Of a stretch of 64,000 nucleotides of DNA, positions 45,208 to 58,114 are shown in pieces. The stretch's first letter is position 1, and each line of letters begins with the position of its first letter. Both the position numbers and the translations under genes were made by a program. The stretch is from Roseibacillus sp. GTDB lineage: Bacteria; Verrucomicrobiota; Verrucomicrobiia; Verrucomicrobiales; Akkermansiaceae. Under the pieces are notes generated by a model. That model ran no database searches and was not told where the DNA came from. It saw nothing but the letters and a program-made list of their open reading frames with translations. Where the stretch lies: contig JBPOGI010000006.1 in the NCBI GenBank assembly GCA_051251855.1, positions 192,001 to 256,000 of the forward strand. Reading direction: 5' to 3'.

Positions 45208-45617
45208 GGTTCTAATTTTTGGAAAGCGTGGGTGAGATTTTGACGCGAGTCGATCATTGGTTTTACTGGGGGAGGCGTTGTTCTCTTCCAACGATGAATG
45301 AATTTCTGAGGACTCAAGTGTCCTTGTCGTTTTTGACAAAGAGAACGATGCCCAGCTCGAGGTCATTTGTCGCAAGCTCGGAGGAACCATCGAAGTCATC
45401 ATCGAAGACAAAGGCCACAGCCACGGCCAAAAGGAGCTGGCTACGAAGAAGCGTTTTTACGAGTTCGTGAGGGAGAACACCTTTCGAGTGCCGAAGTGAG
45501 TGTTGCTGGGGAATGAGGGAGCATCCCAGCCACCGCCGCTTTTCGATGGGGGGAGCTTGAGAGGGGGGAATCAACGGAGCGAACGGTTTCTGAATTATTT
45601 GTCTGTCCAACTACGAC
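45207..45617. repeat. 411-bp direct repeat, copy 1
   Basis: Gap-free match to 49592-50002, about 93 percent identical by manual count. Confidence 0.92.
45326..45499 (+). pseudogene. 3' remnant of an alpha/beta hydrolase gene
   Basis: ENDAQLEVICRKLGGTIEVIIEDKGHSHG resembles ENDAIMEQRYKALGGSIKVIIENKGHSHG of the 37353-38873 protein; an upstream in-frame stop and no credible start. Confidence 0.8.
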
Positions 45618-45618
45618 G

Positions 45619-45695
45619 GTAAATCTTGGGGTTTTCGATTTTAGCGTTTTGACCTTCAGTTCTTTATGCTGATGGTGGTTTTGCGGTGACGTGAT
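45619..45695. repeat. 77-bp block identical to 53584-53660
   Basis: GTAAATCTTGGGG...GGTGACGTGAT exact duplicate. Confidence 0.92.
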
Positions 45696-45713: not shown

Positions 45714-45800
45714 ATGAATTGTGAATGTGGAATGTGGAATGTGGAATGTGGAATGTGGAATGTGGAATGTGGAATGGTGAAGGTGGAATGGTGAAGGTGG
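45714..45800. repeat. Heptamer tandem repeat (GGAATGT)n
   Basis: Six perfect units with degenerate flanking units. Confidence 0.92.
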
Positions 45801-49591: not shown

Positions 49592-50002
49592 TGGTTCTAA
49601 TTTTTGGAAAGCGTGGGTGAGATTTTGACGCGAGTCGACAATTGGTTTTACTGGGGGAGGGGTTGTTCTCTTCCAACGATGAATGAATTTCTGATGGCTC
49701 AAGTGTCCTTGTCGTATTTGACAAAGAGAACGATACCCAGCTGGAGGCCATCTATCGCAAGCTCGGAGGAACCATCGAAGTCATCATCGAAGACAAAGGC
49801 CACAGCCACGGCCAAAAAGAGCCGGCTACCAAGAAGCGTTTTTACGAGTTCGTGAGGGAGAACACCTTTCGGGTGCCCAAGTGAGTGGTGCTGGGGAATG
49901 AGGGAGCATCCCAGCCACCGCCGCTTTTCGATAGGAGGAGCTTGAGAGGGGGGAATCAAAGGAGTGAGTGGTTTCTCGATTATTTGTCTGTCCAACTATT
50001 GC
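49592..50002. repeat. 411-bp direct repeat, copy 2 (contains the hydrolase remnant at 49711-49884)
   Basis: Matches 45207-45617. Confidence 0.92.
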
Positions 50003-50135: not shown

Positions 50136-53100
50136 CTAGTACAGAAGTTCTTGTTCTTGAAAGGCGTTGGATTCTGTTAGGTCGATTGCTCTTAGCCCGT
50201 GCATGCTAACTCCGACCCTATACTTTACTGCGGAAGATGAAACGATCTTGCTGAATAAGTCCTCGGATCCTTTCGTTCTATATGACCTAATAAGCATGTC
50301 CGATTCTTTGTCTCGAATTACTGCAAAACGAGCATGGACTTCAACAACCTGACCTAGATTCCAAGTGTTTAAAGGGTATAGAACCTCAGTTCCTAGACGA
50401 GGCGGAAACTTGGTTATTCTGACTGTAGAAAAATGTTCTTCACAATCAGCATACCTCCTTGCTCTAAAGCATTCCCTTCCGTATCTCATCTGAGCGTCGA
50501 AGTTTGAATCTCCGGGTACGAACGCACGCTTGAGATGCGCTAGAGCTTTTTCAGGGTTACCTGCTGAGTCCATGAGAAATTTTCCGTATACACCATTTAC
50601 ATGACGATCGTTTCTCTTTTCTTCTAGGCAGCGTAAGAGAACATCTTCGGCCTTCTCTTTTTCGTTTTTGGCCAAATAGCAAGAATGAAGCTGCAAAGCG
50701 ATGTAGGGGATACTAGGGTTGCTTTCAAATGCAGCTTCCAAACTGGAAAGTACTGAACCGCTGTCTCCAATCAATTTAGCAAGTTTAGCTTTCGCGTCTA
50801 AGAGGTAGCTGTCGTCTGGGTGCGTCTGCAGAAAAGTTTCGACGTCAATTTGAGCTGGCTTGATTAGTTCACGAACGACAACGGGCGAGATGGAGTCTGG
50901 GTTCTGCTCTAGCACAGCTTGAGCCCTTGCAATGCCGATTTTCGCCAGAGTATGTTTAACATGGGAGGTTTTGCTTGTCTTAGCTAGTTGCTTACATGCA
51001 CGTTCTGCTCGACGTAAAAGCCGTTCCTTTACGCTGGGAGAATCGGAGACCTCTGCCCTTCTCAATAAGAGTTCGGCCGCAGTATGCTTAAAGAACGAAT
51101 TTCCGGGGCTAGCTTTTAAAGCAATGTCTATGTGGTGTTGTGAAAGCTCAAGGTCACCGCCCTTTCTTCGCATTTCAAATACCGCTCGTTGATGAAAAAT
51201 GTTGGGATTGCGTTGGCTCTTATCTTCTGCCAATGCAAAAATCTTCTCGACGTAGGTTGTGTCTGAAAACAATTCATTTAGAACCCGTCCGCGGGTGAGT
51301 TCTTTTAAGGCAGTTTCGTCGCTTTGGTAAGCCATGTTTAGTTTCTGGATGACTTTGAAATACTCCTCAAATCTATCGTTCTGGTCTGTCAGAATTCTTA
51401 AAAAGACAATTTCTGCAATGTATGGATGTCGCGCAAAGTAGACGTAGTCACGTGCTAAGTTGTTGTACTCGTTCCCTACGACGCCTTCAAGTGGAGAGAA
51501 GAGCCTCTTTTTGAAGTCTGAGTAAGGAATAGAGTGAATCCTAGATATGAGCATTGCTCTTACTGGGACGGCAAGCCTGTTTAGCAAGCAAATCGTCAAG
51601 TAAACGGCTCGTGCTTCATTAGTGGACAAGCTATCGTACTCATCCTGAATTATCTCTTCAAACGGTTTTCCTTTTGTTACCTCGTATAGGGCGACGAGGA
51701 GATTTCTTTTTGCGGAAACTCGAAATTTTTCAGCGCATTCTGCTTGGGTAAGACCTTCGAGTTCTCCAAGGCAGCCAGTTTCTGTTAGGCGTTGAACAAG
51801 AGAAAGTATTTCTTTTTGGGATAAGTCTCCCATCTCAAACTCTCTCACTGCGATAAAATTAAATCGAGATTTAAACCGGCTCCAATCGTTTGTCCTTACG
51901 CCGCCAACAAAAGTCACCATTTTGGCAGAAGCTCCTAGACTTGAAACACACTTTTTTAGGTTCGATGATTCGCTTCCAACATCGTCAATAAAGACATAAA
52001 TACGTTGCTTGGTAAGCTCGGCTAACTCGGCAATTGCCGCTGAGTTAAGGTCGCTTGGACGCTCGATGTAAAGAGCAAACCCCTCGTGTTCATGGGTAAG
52101 TTCCCAGCTGAGTCGTTTAAGAGCAATAGTCTTTCCTGCGCCAGCGTAACCTCTTAAGAGAATTAGTTCGCATTCTTTTGGGGTATTCTGTTTTTCCTCT
52201 AGAAATACTTCGATTATTATATCTTCGGAAATTTCTCGAACTACATCCCACTTCTGGAGAATAAAGCTCCATCCGTTACTGTTACCGTTAAAAAATTGTT
52301 CCGAGGTGATGTCTCCATCCTTAGGTTCTATTGAATCTACAAAGACAGCGTCGTTTTGTAAGAATAGTGAAGCGTTCTTCGAAAGTGACATCTTTGGTGA
52401 TGTGAAGTGGCTTCTGAGAGTTGGAGGCATTTTTACGTCGGCTCTGAAACCTCTGAAGTCATCGCTAATGAGCGAGTCAAGAGCTTCCATGAAACCGTCA
52501 AAATCCGCGTCGATAGTCGAGACTTTTCGGTTTTCCCACATTTTGTTTTCGACCTCAGTCCAACCTGGACGGACAAAGTAGAATCTCATCCTGTCTTCGA
52601 TGTCATCTCCGACTCGAGTAATAAAGCGACGAATATCTAAGTCAGAACCGCCATATCCGACGAAAATGAAAGTGTATCTCTTCGCCCACTCTTCAAACGT
52701 ATCGAAGAGACTTTTTCTGCCCTCTTCGACATCAAGATATTGGTCCAAAGATAAAACGAGTTTTACTGATTTAGGACCCATATTATCGAAGCAGCCGTGA
52801 AGCTTTAAATATGGAAGATCGTTTTCGTCTTCGACGATACGTTCGAGGTGATCGTCATATACAATCGGTCTTAGATTTTGTGGGCTCGTATCGTCTGCGC
52901 TGTAACTTTTTTCGACGATTAGATCGTAATTTGTAGTAGCTAATCCTGCCCAGCTAAACTTTGGTAGTAGCTTGTGAGCCCTGCCGGGTTTGAAATCTTT
53001 GAAGGAATCTTTCACGAAATTCTGCACGGTTGCTGTGCTAGTATCGGAAATAGCGCATTCTGCGATCTCGGCTAAAGAACCTCCAGACATCTGATTGTTT

Positions 53101-53255
53101 AGGAATTTTTCAGATAGAAGCTTCCCCAGTTGGTTGGCCAAAGGGGGAGGGGTTCCTTCCGAGTCTTTGGCAGCAAGAGAAGCACCTGCGCCTAGAAACA
53201 AAACCACATTACCCTGTTTTACGAATTCGACTAGATTTGGGTGGTTTTCAAGCAT
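50136..53255 (-). CDS. SIR2-like domain, P-loop (STAND-like) NTPase, TPR region and possible C-terminal OB/cold-shock-like domain; candidate anti-phage protein
   Basis: LFLGAGAS, TTNYD, KLHG and FVGYG..D (SIR2_2 type); GYAGAGKT and IYVFIDD; long helical-repeat region; AT-rich relative to the flanks. Confidence 0.85.
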   Translation of the reverse strand: MLENHPNLVEFVKQGNVVLFLGAGASLAAKDSEGTPPPLANQLGKLLSEKFLNNQMSGGSLAEIAECAISDTSTATVQNFVKDSFKDFKPGRAHKLLPKFSWAGLATTNYDLIVEKSYSADDTSPQNLRPIVYDDHLERIVEDENDLPYLKLHGCFDNMGPKSVKLVLSLDQYLDVEEGRKSLFDTFEEWAKRYTFIFVGYGGSDLDIRRFITRVGDDIEDRMRFYFVRPGWTEVENKMWENRKVSTIDADFDGFMEALDSLISDDFRGFRADVKMPPTLRSHFTSPKMSLSKNASLFLQNDAVFVDSIEPKDGDITSEQFFNGNSNGWSFILQKWDVVREISEDIIIEVFLEEKQNTPKECELILLRGYAGAGKTIALKRLSWELTHEHEGFALYIERPSDLNSAAIAELAELTKQRIYVFIDDVGSESSNLKKCVSSLGASAKMVTFVGGVRTNDWSRFKSRFNFIAVREFEMGDLSQKEILSLVQRLTETGCLGELEGLTQAECAEKFRVSAKRNLLVALYEVTKGKPFEEIIQDEYDSLSTNEARAVYLTICLLNRLAVPVRAMLISRIHSIPYSDFKKRLFSPLEGVVGNEYNNLARDYVYFARHPYIAEIVFLRILTDQNDRFEEYFKVIQKLNMAYQSDETALKELTRGRVLNELFSDTTYVEKIFALAEDKSQRNPNIFHQRAVFEMRRKGGDLELSQHHIDIALKASPGNSFFKHTAAELLLRRAEVSDSPSVKERLLRRAERACKQLAKTSKTSHVKHTLAKIGIARAQAVLEQNPDSISPVVVRELIKPAQIDVETFLQTHPDDSYLLDAKAKLAKLIGDSGSVLSSLEAAFESNPSIPYIALQLHSCYLAKNEKEKAEDVLLRCLEEKRNDRHVNGVYGKFLMDSAGNPEKALAHLKRAFVPGDSNFDAQMRYGRECFRARRYADCEEHFSTVRITKFPPRLGTEVLYPLNTWNLGQVVEVHARFAVIRDKESDMLIRSYRTKGSEDLFSKIVSSSAVKYRVGVSMHGLRAIDLTESNAFQEQELLY

Positions 53256-53550: not shown

Positions 53551-53660
53551 AATAAGATGCCAGGTATCCAGTAGAAAACTGCTGTAAATCTTGGGGTTTT
53601 CGATTTTAGCGTTTTGACCTTCAGTTCTTTATGCTGATGGTGGTTTTGCGGTGACGTGAT
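53551..53660. repeat. About 110-bp element end, with a diverged direct copy at 57925-58030
   Basis: AATAAGATGCCAGG(T/C)ATCCAGTAGAA 25/26 identical, then shared TTCAGT, TTATGCTGATG and TTGCG. Confidence 0.7.
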
Positions 53661-53713
53661 TCAATAATTTGTCTGTCCAACTACAACGATAATTCGTCTA
53701 ACCAACTACGACG
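53656..53713. repeat. Tandem pair of the recurring TTTGTCTGTCCAACTACGAC motif
   Basis: Two 25-bp units; other copies at 45586, 45969, 49559, 49971 and 50018, partial at 53391. Confidence 0.85.
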
Positions 53714-53769: not shown

Positions 53770-54156
53770 TTAAGCGATACAAAGATAGCCGCCTCCTTTG
53801 GCTGCGATCATCGACGAATAATGTGTGGACAAATAGCCGCCTCCTTTGGCCGCGATCAGCGACGAATGTGTGGACATATAGCCGCCCCCTTTGGCCGCGA
53901 TCAACGACGAATGTATGGACAGAAAGCAGTCTTCCTTGAGCGCGTTCAGCGTCATATGGGCGATTGAGAAACCACCTCCCTTGGCCGCGACTAGCGACGG
54001 TTGGGCGAACAAATAGCCGCGGCTATCGTGGGCCGATTCCCCCCTTTGCTCGCAAGCTTTGGAGCGAAACGTCGCTTCGGCTATAGGGCTTGAGTCTGAC
54101 GTGTTGAATGCCAGAAGCTCAATGGATAGAAAGAAGGCAATGATGATGTTTTTCAT
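53770..54156 (-). CDS. Secreted repeat peptide with four SL(I/V)AAKGGG(Y/F)-type units; candidate precursor peptide
   Basis: MKN plus hydrophobic signal-like N-terminus; 48-51-bp coding repeats with synonymous third-position changes. Confidence 0.78.
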   Translation of the reverse strand: MKNIIIAFFLSIELLAFNTSDSSPIAEATFRSKACEQRGESAHDSRGYLFAQPSLVAAKGGGFSIAHMTLNALKEDCFLSIHSSLIAAKGGGYMSTHSSLIAAKGGGYLSTHYSSMIAAKGGGYLCIA

Positions 54157-54177
54157 TTTAGATAGCTGGTAAGTTGA

Positions 54178-55230
54178 TTATTTAGAGGAGGTGAGATTGG
54201 CGTAGGTCAGTGCCAACATGAAGGGCTGAGCATTAGGATTGTCAGGCTGATCGTAGGCTTTTGCTTTTTTTGCGAACTCGCGTTGGAGGCGGGGAAGATC
54301 CTTTTTGAAATCCATGATTGCGTCATCGTCGAGCTGTCCAACGAGATACTGAAAGCGGGAGCCTTCGAGGCTCAAATCATAAACGACTTCATACATGCTC
54401 GATGCAGCCTCTCCCAGTGCAAGTCGAAGCAATGGGCAAGCGGTCATCAATAATCCAGCGTTCCAACCAGACTTCCCGGAAGTTGTCCGAGTGGGAGAAA
54501 TTGCTTGTTGCTCTCGTTTAGCGAGCTCTTTGAAGGCGGGGTTTCCGCCCGAACTAGGATGAAAATCCTTAAACAGCTGCTCGGCGTCTTCCTTAGTAAG
54601 ATGAAGCGTCCAAGATTCTCGAAGCTTTGGATCCTGGTGCTTGAGGATTTCCATACAGTAAGGCTGAGCTTCGAGCTTAAGATCGAGTTCGCCAACGGTT
54701 AGCGGCGGGGAGTAAATGTGACTGACGAGCTTGTAAATGCGCCGTCCAAGATCTAGACCATCCCGTTTGAGCATCCCGCCCTGCTCAAGCTGGTCGAGAA
54801 GACCGCGCATATTTATCTGGTTGACGGCGGGTCTCATCCCCTCCGGTAGTTCATGCTCCTTGATAGTTGAATTGAGAGGAAGAGCGGCAAGCTTTTGAAT
54901 CATTCTGTCGAGAGTAAACCACTGTGTTACCATTTCATCCTGGTCAAACTCGACCTCAAGCCGATCAAAGTCAATTTGGTTAAGGTTCTTGAAGGTTACG
55001 CCTTGCAGAGACGCCGCATAGCCGGTAGTACGACCCGTATTCTCGCTATTTTTGCTGCGCAAGGCTCGGAGGAGTTGTTGCAGTATGTCATTGGGGACAC
55101 CGAGATCGTTTGCGCTAGCCGCCAAACGATAGGCGTCTCGCACAAAATTCCCAAACTTGTTGTTTTTTAGTAATAAGCGGTGAATTATACCGTTACGTCT
55201 GGCGATCTTTTCTCCTTTGGTGGCAGGCAT
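54178..55230 (-). CDS. Hypothetical protein, probable winged-helix regulator with a duplicated C-terminal alpha/beta domain
   Basis: MRGLLDQLEQGGMLKRD...IYKL wing-like segment; two units resembling DUF4423/DUF6502-type C-termini (by eye only). Confidence 0.55.
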   Translation of the reverse strand: MPATKGEKIARRNGIIHRLLLKNNKFGNFVRDAYRLAASANDLGVPNDILQQLLRALRSKNSENTGRTTGYAASLQGVTFKNLNQIDFDRLEVEFDQDEMVTQWFTLDRMIQKLAALPLNSTIKEHELPEGMRPAVNQINMRGLLDQLEQGGMLKRDGLDLGRRIYKLVSHIYSPPLTVGELDLKLEAQPYCMEILKHQDPKLRESWTLHLTKEDAEQLFKDFHPSSGGNPAFKELAKREQQAISPTRTTSGKSGWNAGLLMTACPLLRLALGEAASSMYEVVYDLSLEGSRFQYLVGQLDDDAIMDFKKDLPRLQREFAKKAKAYDQPDNPNAQPFMLALTYANLTSSK

Positions 55231-55300
55231 ATGATTTCAGAAGTGTTAAGGTTCTTCATTTGCGAAGAAGGCTACAATCTAGCTCGAGAGAGAATTTTGA

Positions 55301-55320
55301 CAGGGAAAATTTTTTTCCTG
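55301..55320. promoter_or_regulatory. Palindromic operator-like site upstream of the regulator-peptide unit
   Basis: CAGGGAAAATTTTTTTCCTG; overlaps a possible minus-strand promoter CTGTCA-16nt-TAGATT. Confidence 0.6.
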
Positions 55321-55348
55321 CCGCAATCTTCATTAGGAGAAGGCTCTT

Positions 55349-56248
55349 TTAGCGAGGACCTCGATTCAATGAAGACCTAGGCTTCCATTGGAATGTAATG
55401 CCTAGACCCGCAAAGATGACCAAGGCGATGCCTCCGATTTGGGACGGAGCCAACCTTTCTCCGTAAATTAGCCAATCGAAGCCGAGAGCGGCAATCGGAT
55501 AGACATAGGCCAACACCGCAAACAAGGGCATTGGGGTTCGCTGAACCGCGAAATAGAGCAATGAATAGAGTAATCCGGTGTGGACGACGCCCAGGATGAT
55601 AAGGCTTGCCCACTGCTCCGCACTTGAAGGCAAAGCGCTAAAATCTAAGAAAGGAAGGAGAAGCCCCGCGCCCAGAGCGGTCTGAATTAGGGCAAGAAGG
55701 GGCGCTGGAATTGTTTTGATGACCCGTGTAGCGAGCGTAGTGACGGCGTAGAGAATAGCTGCGGCGATCGCCAAAATAATTCCAAAAGAGGTATTCGGTT
55801 GGGAGGAACCCAAATTTTCCAGATCTAACGTTAGGGTGAGTCCAGCGAACGCTCCAAGAATCCAGAACAGATGGTGTGCCGCGAGGCTTTCACGCAGAAC
55901 CAGTGCGCCTAGCAAGAGTAAGATCAAGGGTTGCGTGTGATAGGCAATGGTGGCCATACCGATAGGAATGTAGCGAAAGGCTTGGAAGAGCAAAACCCAG
56001 TTGATGACGAGCGCAAGACTGGACAACGAGGCCAGCGTGAGTTGCCTACGGTTGATCAGGGTTTTATCGGGCAGAGCCACTCGCGTGTATACGCCAGCCA
56101 AGGCGATAGCTCCGAAGAAGCAACGAAAGAAGGCTACGTTCAGAGAGCTTTGGCCGGATGTTTTGACGAAAAATCCAATGGAGCCAGCCAAGGTCATCGC
56201 GACGAGCATAGCCGCCGGTCCTCTCCAACTAGAAGGGTTAGAATTCAT
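55349..56248 (-). CDS. EamA/DMT family transporter
   Basis: About 10 transmembrane segments; NVAFFRC, NWVLLFQAF, YHTQP, LGVVHTG and YVYP. Confidence 0.92.
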   Translation of the reverse strand: MNSNPSSWRGPAAMLVAMTLAGSIGFFVKTSGQSSLNVAFFRCFFGAIALAGVYTRVALPDKTLINRRQLTLASLSSLALVINWVLLFQAFRYIPIGMATIAYHTQPLILLLLGALVLRESLAAHHLFWILGAFAGLTLTLDLENLGSSQPNTSFGIILAIAAAILYAVTTLATRVIKTIPAPLLALIQTALGAGLLLPFLDFSALPSSAEQWASLIILGVVHTGLLYSLLYFAVQRTPMPLFAVLAYVYPIAALGFDWLIYGERLAPSQIGGIALVIFAGLGITFQWKPRSSLNRGPR

Positions 56249-56267
56249 GTTCGAAAGATGATTAGAA

Positions 56268-57461
56268 TTACATTGAGAGGACGACTTCTTCCTGTTCGCT
56301 GTAGGTTAAGGGTGAACCAAGATTGGCTGTTCTAGGTAGTTCGCTTAGGCGCCGGAAGGTTTCCTGAATGGGAGCCTTAATCCCCCAGTATTCTGTGTAT
56401 TCAGGCAATCGCCCAGCATCGCTAAGGACGGCATCACGACGGGCATAGGCAGCAGTAGCCCACTGAGGAGTCTTTGGGTGCCAATGATGGAAATCATGAC
56501 TGGGAAGGTCACCGGGGATAATGGCGATGCGGTAGGGGAGATCGACCAACAAAATTCGGGCCAGCCAGCAGTTCCAGGCGATGACTGCTTTAAAGCCATT
56601 AAGGCCGGAATCCGGTGCGCAAACCCCTACGAAACGACCGCTGGTGACACTGGCCATCACCTCTTTTGAGGAGCTTTCACCCTCGCCCAAGCGCACCCAT
56701 TGATGCAGCCCAAGCAAACCAACCCAAGCAGACATTTGACTGAGGATTCCGACGGGCAGAACGTAAGCAAGCACTAGAGCAGTCCATTGATTTGTCACAG
56801 CCGTAAGGATGAGAAGAGTGCTGACCCAGGCGATGGCAGCTAAACGTCGGGGTCTGCTCGACCGAACGAAGTTTGCGCGCAAGCGAGCTCGCAAGAAAAG
56901 TGCGTGAAACCTCGGTGAGAGCAGTGAAAGCCAGAACCGTCGCCAATATTCTGGGATGCTCAAGCCGGGTTCGAGGCCACAAACCTGGACCATAAACGCA
57001 AGGTCGGGATCATCTGTTGTAGCCACCTTTGCGTGGTGGTGCATGTGACCCTTGCGATACTCAGCCAGCGGATGAGTCAAGGTAAGGACGCTGACAAGTT
57101 CGCCGAAAAAATCATTGATTCGGGAATTCTGGAAGAGCATCCCATGCGAAGCGTGGTGAACCACGCCGGTTTGGAACACTCGGACGCTGCGAATAGTGAA
57201 AAGCCAAGCTAATAACAATAGCGTCCAGAAACCTTTGGGGAGCTGAAGGAGCAATAGGGCTGCTGCGAGAGAAATAACGAATGCTGCGATCTCCACGACT
57301 ACCCGCATAGGGGGCGTCCATTTGATCAGAGGAAGCTCACCGGGCAAGGCTTTGCCCGTGAGCGCGGTCAACATCGGCTGTGTCCATTGAGGGAGCTGTG
57401 CCATAGATGCACGGCGGTCAATGGTCGAAGGGGCGTTTTTGGGAAGATGTGGTTCTTTCAC
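56268..57461 (-). CDS. Fatty-acid-desaturase-superfamily membrane di-iron enzyme
   Basis: Three His boxes (HHASH, HMHHH, HDFHH) with intervening transmembrane segments. Confidence 0.85.
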   Translation of the reverse strand: MKEPHLPKNAPSTIDRRASMAQLPQWTQPMLTALTGKALPGELPLIKWTPPMRVVVEIAAFVISLAAALLLLQLPKGFWTLLLLAWLFTIRSVRVFQTGVVHHASHGMLFQNSRINDFFGELVSVLTLTHPLAEYRKGHMHHHAKVATTDDPDLAFMVQVCGLEPGLSIPEYWRRFWLSLLSPRFHALFLRARLRANFVRSSRPRRLAAIAWVSTLLILTAVTNQWTALVLAYVLPVGILSQMSAWVGLLGLHQWVRLGEGESSSKEVMASVTSGRFVGVCAPDSGLNGFKAVIAWNCWLARILLVDLPYRIAIIPGDLPSHDFHHWHPKTPQWATAAYARRDAVLSDAGRLPEYTEYWGIKAPIQETFRRLSELPRTANLGSPLTYSEQEEVVLSM

Positions 57462-57522
57462 ACGGCGAGATTCGCCGCGCTCGAATTTAGTTTCTGGATA
57501 GTGTCTTTGGTGGAAAAAACGA

Positions 57523-57541
57523 GGGAGAAAATTTTTTTCCC
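57523..57541. promoter_or_regulatory. Palindromic operator-like site upstream of the desaturase-EamA unit
   Basis: GGGAGAAAATTTTTTTCCC; shares GAAAATTTTTTTCC (14 bp) with 55305-55318. Confidence 0.6.
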
Positions 57542-57890: not shown

Positions 57891-58114
57891 TTTGGGTGTG
57901 TTGACTTGTTGGACTCCGCTTGAGAATAAGATGCCAGGCATCCAGTAGAATACCGGCGCAGATTTTGAATCCCTTGGATGAGTTTCCACTCATTTTCAGT
58001 CGGTTATGCTGATGTTGATGTTGCGATGGCCCTGGTGCGATTGGAGCGGATTGAGCTTTTGGAATGCCTCACTTCGGAATGAGGAGGATGGGCGAGGCTC
58101 TGCCCGAGGTATTT

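Follow-up and report, generated by a model that had tools for sequence, protein, structure and literature searches.

We describe a four-gene block at positions 53770–57541 of a 64,000-nucleotide stretch of the genome of Roseibacillus sp. (GenBank assembly GCA_051251855.1, contig JBPOGI010000006.1, positions 192,001–256,000; hereafter the window), which likely joins an amino-acid-modifying di-iron enzyme and an exporter to an unexplained pair of orphan genes under a common upstream element. The best overall explanation, which we put forward tentatively and at somewhat less than even confidence, is that the block makes a modified amino acid for export and carries a coupled orphan regulator-peptide pair. 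A free amino acid would undergo hydroxylation or desaturation by the desaturase-type enzyme, and the EamA protein would pump the modified form out of the cell. The orphan protein of 350 residues may be a DNA-binding regulator that acts at a 14-bp core ahead of both units, and the repeat peptide would more likely be a coupled partner of this regulator than a substrate of the enzyme. Since there is only one such block, and two of its genes are orphans, most of this circuit is our inference. The block comprises the following features:

57527–57540, reverse strand: 14-bp near-palindromic core GGAAAAAAATTTTC, preceding the desaturase-EamA unit
56268–57461, reverse strand: PF00487 desaturase-type enzyme, 397 aa, of an unnamed subfamily with links to amino-acid pathways
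55349–56248, reverse strand: EamA/DMT exporter, 299 aa, with two PF00892 domains
55305–55318, reverse strand: identical 14-bp core GGAAAAAAATTTTC, preceding the regulator-peptide unit
54178–55230, reverse strand: orphan protein, 350 aa, possible helix-turn-helix (HTH)/winged-helix regulator, no Pfam family at E ≤ 1
53770–54156, reverse strand: repeat peptide, 128 aa, with a hydrophobic N-terminus and five 15/16-aa repeats
53773–53997, reverse strand: the five repeats, core SL[IV]AAKGGG[YF], the second strongly diverged

Organization of the block and the shared upstream core

A preliminary description, made from the sequence, had noted four co-oriented open reading frames (ORFs) in two tight units and had not recognized the combination as a described system. 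Both points hold. The recomputed gaps between successive ORFs are 19, 118 and 21 bp (desaturase to EamA to 350-aa gene to peptide), and a literature search, with supplements and most subscription papers outside its scope, gave no description of the four-gene combination. The G + C content at third codon positions (GC3) of the four genes lies at z +0.2 to −1.2, and thus gives no foreign signature by this measure.

The same 14-bp core was also proposed to precede each unit at a similar distance, and this was confirmed, with 65 nt between core and start for the desaturase-EamA unit and 74 nt for the regulator-peptide unit. With up to one mismatch allowed, a search of the 4.96-Mb genome finds the core at these two places and nowhere else (0.13 exact copies expected). 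In an empirical null of real AT-rich upstream regions, a word of at least 14 nt was common to 11 of 40,000 random pairs. The sharing of the core between the two upstream regions exceeds chance. No sigma-70 consensus was found at either core. We give an even chance to binding of the core by the putative regulator.

The desaturase-type enzyme and the neighborhoods of its relatives

The product of 56268–57461 matches PF00487 with 52.7 bits (gathering cut-off 29.7), and its histidine boxes (H102/H106, H139/H142/H143, H253 and H322/H325/H326) are invariant in all 15 aligned proteins. These features identify it, by sequence, as a membrane His-box di-iron protein of the fatty-acid-desaturase superfamily, in a subfamily without a name. 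The structure model of the enzyme has a pLDDT of 82.8, and its top two fold matches (TM 0.40–0.44) are chains of the Ycf2/Orf2971-FtsHi complex, which we take to be desaturase-like subunits. The best NCBIfam match is GntB (NF041365), the L-arginine gamma-hydroxylase of guanitoxin biosynthesis, which acts on an amino acid as proposed for the window enzyme; at 39.8 bits against a curated cut-off of 380 the enzyme does not qualify as an equivalog, and no other guanitoxin pathway gene is present in the block. GntB is also the best NCBIfam match for all five desaturase relatives scanned. The available text of one report describes GntB as a transmembrane enzyme (10.1101/2023.03.21.533663), which conflicts with the label alpha-ketoglutarate-dependent in the available text of a review (PMC12371840). 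Close relatives of the enzyme were absent from 190 other genomes of its own phylum and from 190 further genomes of the phylum of a planctomycete metagenome-assembled genome.

We collected 104 loci of desaturase relatives, 60 from genomes and 44 from metagenomes, and counted their neighbors with representative queries. An amino-acid-activating or -modifying gene is present in 65 of these loci and an EamA or AzlC exporter in 14, and a close relative (32–38% identity) of the window EamA, which itself has two PF00892 stretches (114.9 bits), lies near the desaturase in eight. The types of neighbors include PF10014 dioxygenases with threonine dehydratase, AlaX-type and YbaK-type tRNA-editing proteins, AzlC/AzlD, heme-oxygenase-like oxidases, proline-3-hydroxylase-like enzymes and adenylation domains. 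Loci of Vibrio, Moritella and Marinomonas contain a PF10014 dioxygenase (HilB-like, below the cut-off), EamA, ferredoxin and threonine dehydratase; an Aliiroseovarius locus contains an AlaX-type editing protein, an HMGL/LeuA-type synthase, PF10014 and EamA; and a Pseudoalteromonas locus contains AzlC/AzlD. HilB-like genes stand beside the desaturase in five of the 104 loci. The gene downstream of a fragment (L110) that is 53% identical to the window enzyme over the last 90 residues encodes a tRNA-editing protein, and a DUF2000 gene lies downstream of the enzyme in L074 and L078. Of four annotated plasmid regions, three came with gene tables; two of these are of the amino-acid type, and in the third acyl genes are mixed in.

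These neighborhoods support the earlier proposal that enzyme and exporter yield an exported small molecule, and we consider it fairly likely that the substrate is an amino acid and that its product is exported. By analogy, our best guess for the substrate would be a branched-chain amino acid, because of the isoleucine-type neighbors, though those belong to other clades. Some of the desaturase relatives are accompanied by tRNA-editing and exporter genes, and an antimetabolite would therefore be a plausible exported product. The enzyme marks a widespread, unnamed desaturase subfamily that apparently oxidizes amino acids, and the two-gene desaturase-EamA version offers an uncomplicated setting in which to look for the substrate of the subfamily.

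In a tree of 110 rows (fragments with fewer than 280 aligned residues were left out), the window enzyme falls into a separate clade of eight rows, nested inside a clade of 14. The near relatives with context are mostly solitary, and several of their contigs end shortly past the gene. Near relatives in four loci (L076 166–5999, L078 1548–7531, L077 and L016) are divergent from genes for an extracytoplasmic function (ECF) sigma factor plus Ser/Thr kinase, NACHT-HEAT or trypsin-TPR proteins. Elsewhere in the sample, in five proteobacterial loci (L064, L070, L071, L075 and L097), a PF10014 dioxygenase and EamA accompany the desaturase, together with either threonine dehydratase or an HMGL/LeuA-type synthase; these clusters are candidates for a pathway to an isoleucine-derived metabolite. 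Approximately 50 mostly actinobacterial loci, in the range L019–L111, share a recurrent set of an adenylation-carrier-thioesterase protein, PhyH, a proline-3-hydroxylase-like enzyme, a heme-oxygenase-like oxidase, the desaturase and PhzF.

The dihydrorhizobitoxine desaturase RtxC, presumably a member of the desaturase superfamily, acts on an amino acid as proposed for the window enzyme, to which it is likened here by description and not by sequence. It performs the final step toward a secreted amino-acid inhibitor (available text of PMC6304460). Linkage to rtxA would be expected of an RtxC equivalent; no rtxA-like gene is present in the window block. In the IDO/Hil operon, an isoleucine dioxygenase and the RhtA exporter make an isoleucine antimetabolite (available text of PMC3684760), and this logic of an oxygenase and an amino-acid exporter leading to an antimetabolite is analogous to that proposed for the block. 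The enzyme class differs, the window block lacks a dioxygenase or reductase, and the word "desaturase" does not occur in the main text of that paper.

The repeat peptide and the orphan 350-aa protein

The repeat units of the peptide gene are spaced by 48, 45, 45 and 45 nt, all in frame, and consist of a conserved part and variable tails. Four repeats differ mostly at synonymous sites over ten codons (first versus third: seven synonymous and two non-synonymous changes); the second and fourth differ by eight non-synonymous changes and one synonymous change over ten codons. As synonymous changes exceed non-synonymous ones among four repeats, the peptide is a real coding sequence whose repeats are under protein-level selection. 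Its N-terminus is hydrophobic over approximately residues 3–17, with a Glu within, and suggests that the peptide is likely exported. Of the earlier term "secreted multi-repeat peptide", the repeats are therefore upheld, as in frame and selected as protein, and "secreted" reflects only the hydrophobic stretch. No homologues of the peptide were found. One weak match in 300 genomes of the phylum lacked the repeat motif, and six matches from viruses were each a lone copy within a Gly-rich protein; these candidates were rejected.

The 350-aa protein is likewise an orphan. No homologues were found among 4,634 word-sharing candidates or 1.84 billion representatives, nor in plasmids, viral contigs or 201 genomes of the Sorangium phylum, and 150 relatives yielded three weak matches only, all in unrelated frames. 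It has no match in Pfam, NCBIfam, PHROG, PADLOC or PDB, its single-sequence fold is uninformative (pLDDT 36), and a comparison with an XRE regulator of the same genome (contig C7) as a possible relative showed nothing. The leads from Atlas were a sub-threshold HTH and DUF4423 (0.81). A weak collinear resemblance to DUF4423 proteins extends over residues 1–157. In mean pairwise score against 12 DUF4423 proteins, the whole protein reached z 2.8, and residues 95–225, a segment picked after inspection, beat all 150 shuffles and all 150 real ORFs (z 4.2). The cut-offs of the TIGR02147/DUF4423 families are not reached. The protein is thus possibly a winged-helix regulator, to judge from this resemblance, and membership in the family is unsupported; the label "regulator" of the preliminary description retains the weak DUF4423 likeness and is not established.

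An argument from gene layout is independent of this weak sequence similarity. DUF4423 loci were gathered from the Sorangium phylum, and the three members scanned are TIGR02147 proteins. Of 30 loci surveyed, two were skipped and two contain a double-HTH variant without such a partner; in each of the 26 remaining, canonical cases (L170–L193, L195 and L197) the gene has a translationally coupled downstream gene, mostly for a lipoprotein, starting at −17 to +20. The N-terminal regions of these partners contain a Gly-rich GN[PA] motif (read by eye), and the rest of the partners differs. For comparison, 53 lipoprotein-like ORFs of the window's genome, which belongs to another phylum, served as a control, and none carries GN[PA] within 50 residues of the lipobox. 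Coupling and motif together suggest an undescribed regulator-ligand rule; a literature search gave no description of it and one mention of DUF4423/TIGR02147, a table entry. The window pair has the same layout, a gene followed by a coupled, signal-bearing Gly-rich gene (21-bp gap, hydrophobic N-terminus), whereas the 350-aa protein is approximately 70 aa longer than TIGR02147/DUF4423 proteins. A separate pair in the same genome (L147; contig C7, 446554–448462) consists of an XRE-type HTH gene followed by a lipoprotein gene with GGN after the lipobox, echoing the DUF4423 layout, and has no homologue in 200 genomes of the phylum.

In RRNPP quorum sensing (Rap-Phr, PlcR-PapR and AimR-AimP), a regulator gene is followed by a gene for a small exported peptide, as may be the case in the window, and multi-copy peptide precursors occur in some RRNPP systems. 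These regulators have a TPR-type peptide-binding domain, which was not detected in the 350-aa protein, where a very divergent TPR is conceivable, and they are described for Gram-positive bacteria, whereas the host of the window is a verrucomicrobium. We regard it as unlikely, though well worth considering, that the peptide is the ligand of the regulator. Somewhat less credible still is a complete peptide-pheromone circuit in a Gram-negative bacterium of the Planctomycetes-Verrucomicrobia-Chlamydiae (PVC) group, in which the exported repeats would be cut to short Gly-rich peptides; these would go back to a DUF4423-like regulator, which would switch on an amino-acid antimetabolite pathway via the core. 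The diverged second repeat would then correspond to a new signal specificity, and the window pair would be a stripped-down case of a wider and apparently undescribed rule, by which TIGR02147/DUF4423 regulators would read a short Gly-rich motif in the next-encoded exported protein. If true, this would be a form of peptide signaling so far seen mainly in Gram-positive bacteria, and the uncharacterized TIGR02147/DUF4423 family would gain a testable ligand.

Evaluation of alternative explanations

Several observations weigh against production and export of a modified amino acid under control of the orphan pair. The four-gene combination is known from one genome only (4.96 Mb), and no ferredoxin or precursor-supply gene lies in the block. 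One mostly actinobacterial clade accounts for 57 of the 110 tree rows, so that the neighbor counts overstate independence. The EamA-linked desaturases belong to other clades than the window enzyme, and the desaturase-EamA pair was therefore probably assembled separately; no EamA gene was found beside those near relatives that have context. The core is a low-complexity A/T tract and could be a promoter UP-like element. At up to one mismatch it is absent from the 1.02 Mb of desaturase-relative loci, and none of the seven two-mismatch matches there lies in intergenic DNA before the enzyme gene; conservation of the palindrome in homologous loci, on which the preliminary description had staked its proposal, is thus not seen in the 104 desaturase loci. 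With our own DUF4423 hidden Markov model the 350-aa protein scored 0.1 bit, below shuffles, and unrelated winged-helix proteins scored up to 12.7 bits; hhalign against DUF4423 gave P 0.04–0.06 (P 0.04 for residues 94–158) and a probability of approximately 1%. The window peptide, unlike the TIGR02147 partners, has no GN[PA] or lipobox and carries AAKGGG[YF].

Some of these points would fit a chance mosaic, in which a desaturase-EamA pair and an orphan gene pair, unrelated to each other, ended up as neighbors in a transposase-scarred hotspot, with a generic A/T promoter element as the core. The block does lie in such a hotspot, where RAYT remnants and duplicated fragments occur and a SIR2-STAND gene adjoins it (described below), and near relatives of the enzyme are often found singly, next to unrelated genes for NACHT, kinase or trypsin proteins. 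Co-occurrence of the four genes in other genomes, which had been suggested as a check, was found in none of the 104 desaturase loci, where neither the peptide nor the regulator has a match at E < 0.5; co-occurrence is hardly testable, because these two have no homologues at all and the contigs of the nearest clade are short. We nonetheless hold the mosaic to be rather doubtful, since the identical core is found genome-wide only at these two promoters, against 11 of 40,000 under the empirical null, and the repeats flank the block, yet leave no repeat scar between the two units. Quite improbable is a role of the enzyme on acyl lipids, as a desaturase or hydroxylase, or in making a signal of fatty-acid type that the regulator senses, with the peptide as a bystander output. 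Membership in the PF00487 superfamily would agree with this, as would one plasmid relative that adjoins acyltransferase and PfaD genes, but the neighborhoods of most relatives are amino-acid pathways, and of the NCBIfam models GntB scores higher on the window enzyme than the lipid desaturase and carotenoid ones. Finally, the preliminary description had the desaturase modify the peptide cores, as in a system for a peptide that is synthesized by the ribosome and modified post-translationally (RiPP), where the enzyme would oxidize the repeats, which are then cut and released. The peptide does have the architecture of a multi-core precursor, with a conserved part and variable tails, and the upstream core is common to both units. 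We judge this highly improbable: no repeat precursor was found among the short ORFs of the desaturase loci (0 of 104 clustering with precursors), the neighbors of the relatives point to free or carrier-bound amino acids, no C39 peptidase was found in the 95%-complete genome and the block has no dedicated protease or transporter, and in the RiPP literature "fatty acid desaturase" is absent among the matches listed. EamA proteins, moreover, move small metabolites.

Flanking repeats and acquisition of the block

Repeated sequences flank the block on both sides:

53551–53660, forward strand: repeat R1, a likely remnant of RAYT/Y1-transposase flank DNA
53661–53713, forward strand: dispersed motif, located elsewhere in the genome at the 5′ ends of genes for Y1/RAYT-like transposases
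57925–58030, forward strand: repeat R2, a diverged copy of R1

The motif that abuts R1 has 21 genome-wide matches at up to three mismatches, and several Y1 transposase genes carry it at their 5′ end; the match of these transposases to the RAYT model is below its cut-off. RAYT genes flanked by repeats are reported, PVC bacteria included, in the available text of PMC3733652. A 77-bp part of the R1/R2 element recurs identically at 45619–45695 of the window, and the left part of the repeat lies directly upstream of a Y1 transposase in a genome of the same genus (G003). Because copies recur elsewhere and sit by transposase genes, the repeats mark a transposase-scarred hotspot. The direct repeats that were said to bracket the module are thus real and not private to it. 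An integrative element with att repeats was rejected, as R1 and R2 recur elsewhere, the window contains no tRNA gene, and the two genes that flank the block have different neighbors in G001 and G004, so that an empty site was not seen. No integrase was noticed in the ORF lists of 30000–64000, which were partly scanned against Pfam. The repeats were also considered as non-coding RNA or attC-like hairpins and rejected, with no Rfam match and fold z-scores of −0.5 to −1.1.

The block is absent from 100 relatives by DNA comparison and no empty site was seen, and we consider it patchily distributed and probably acquired; its transposition as one unit is a candidate only. The "mobile circuit" of the preliminary description accordingly survives as a patchy, probably acquired block and not as an att-type element, as the repeats look like remnants of transposase flanks.

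Adjoining the block, a gene with low GC3 at 50136–53255 encodes a SIR2-like, nSTAND5 NTPase and TPR protein and likely serves in anti-phage defense. Duplicated mosaic fragments, starting like a transposase upstream region, lie at 45314–45610 and 49699–49995, and 7-bp tandem repeats are present near 45720–45780.

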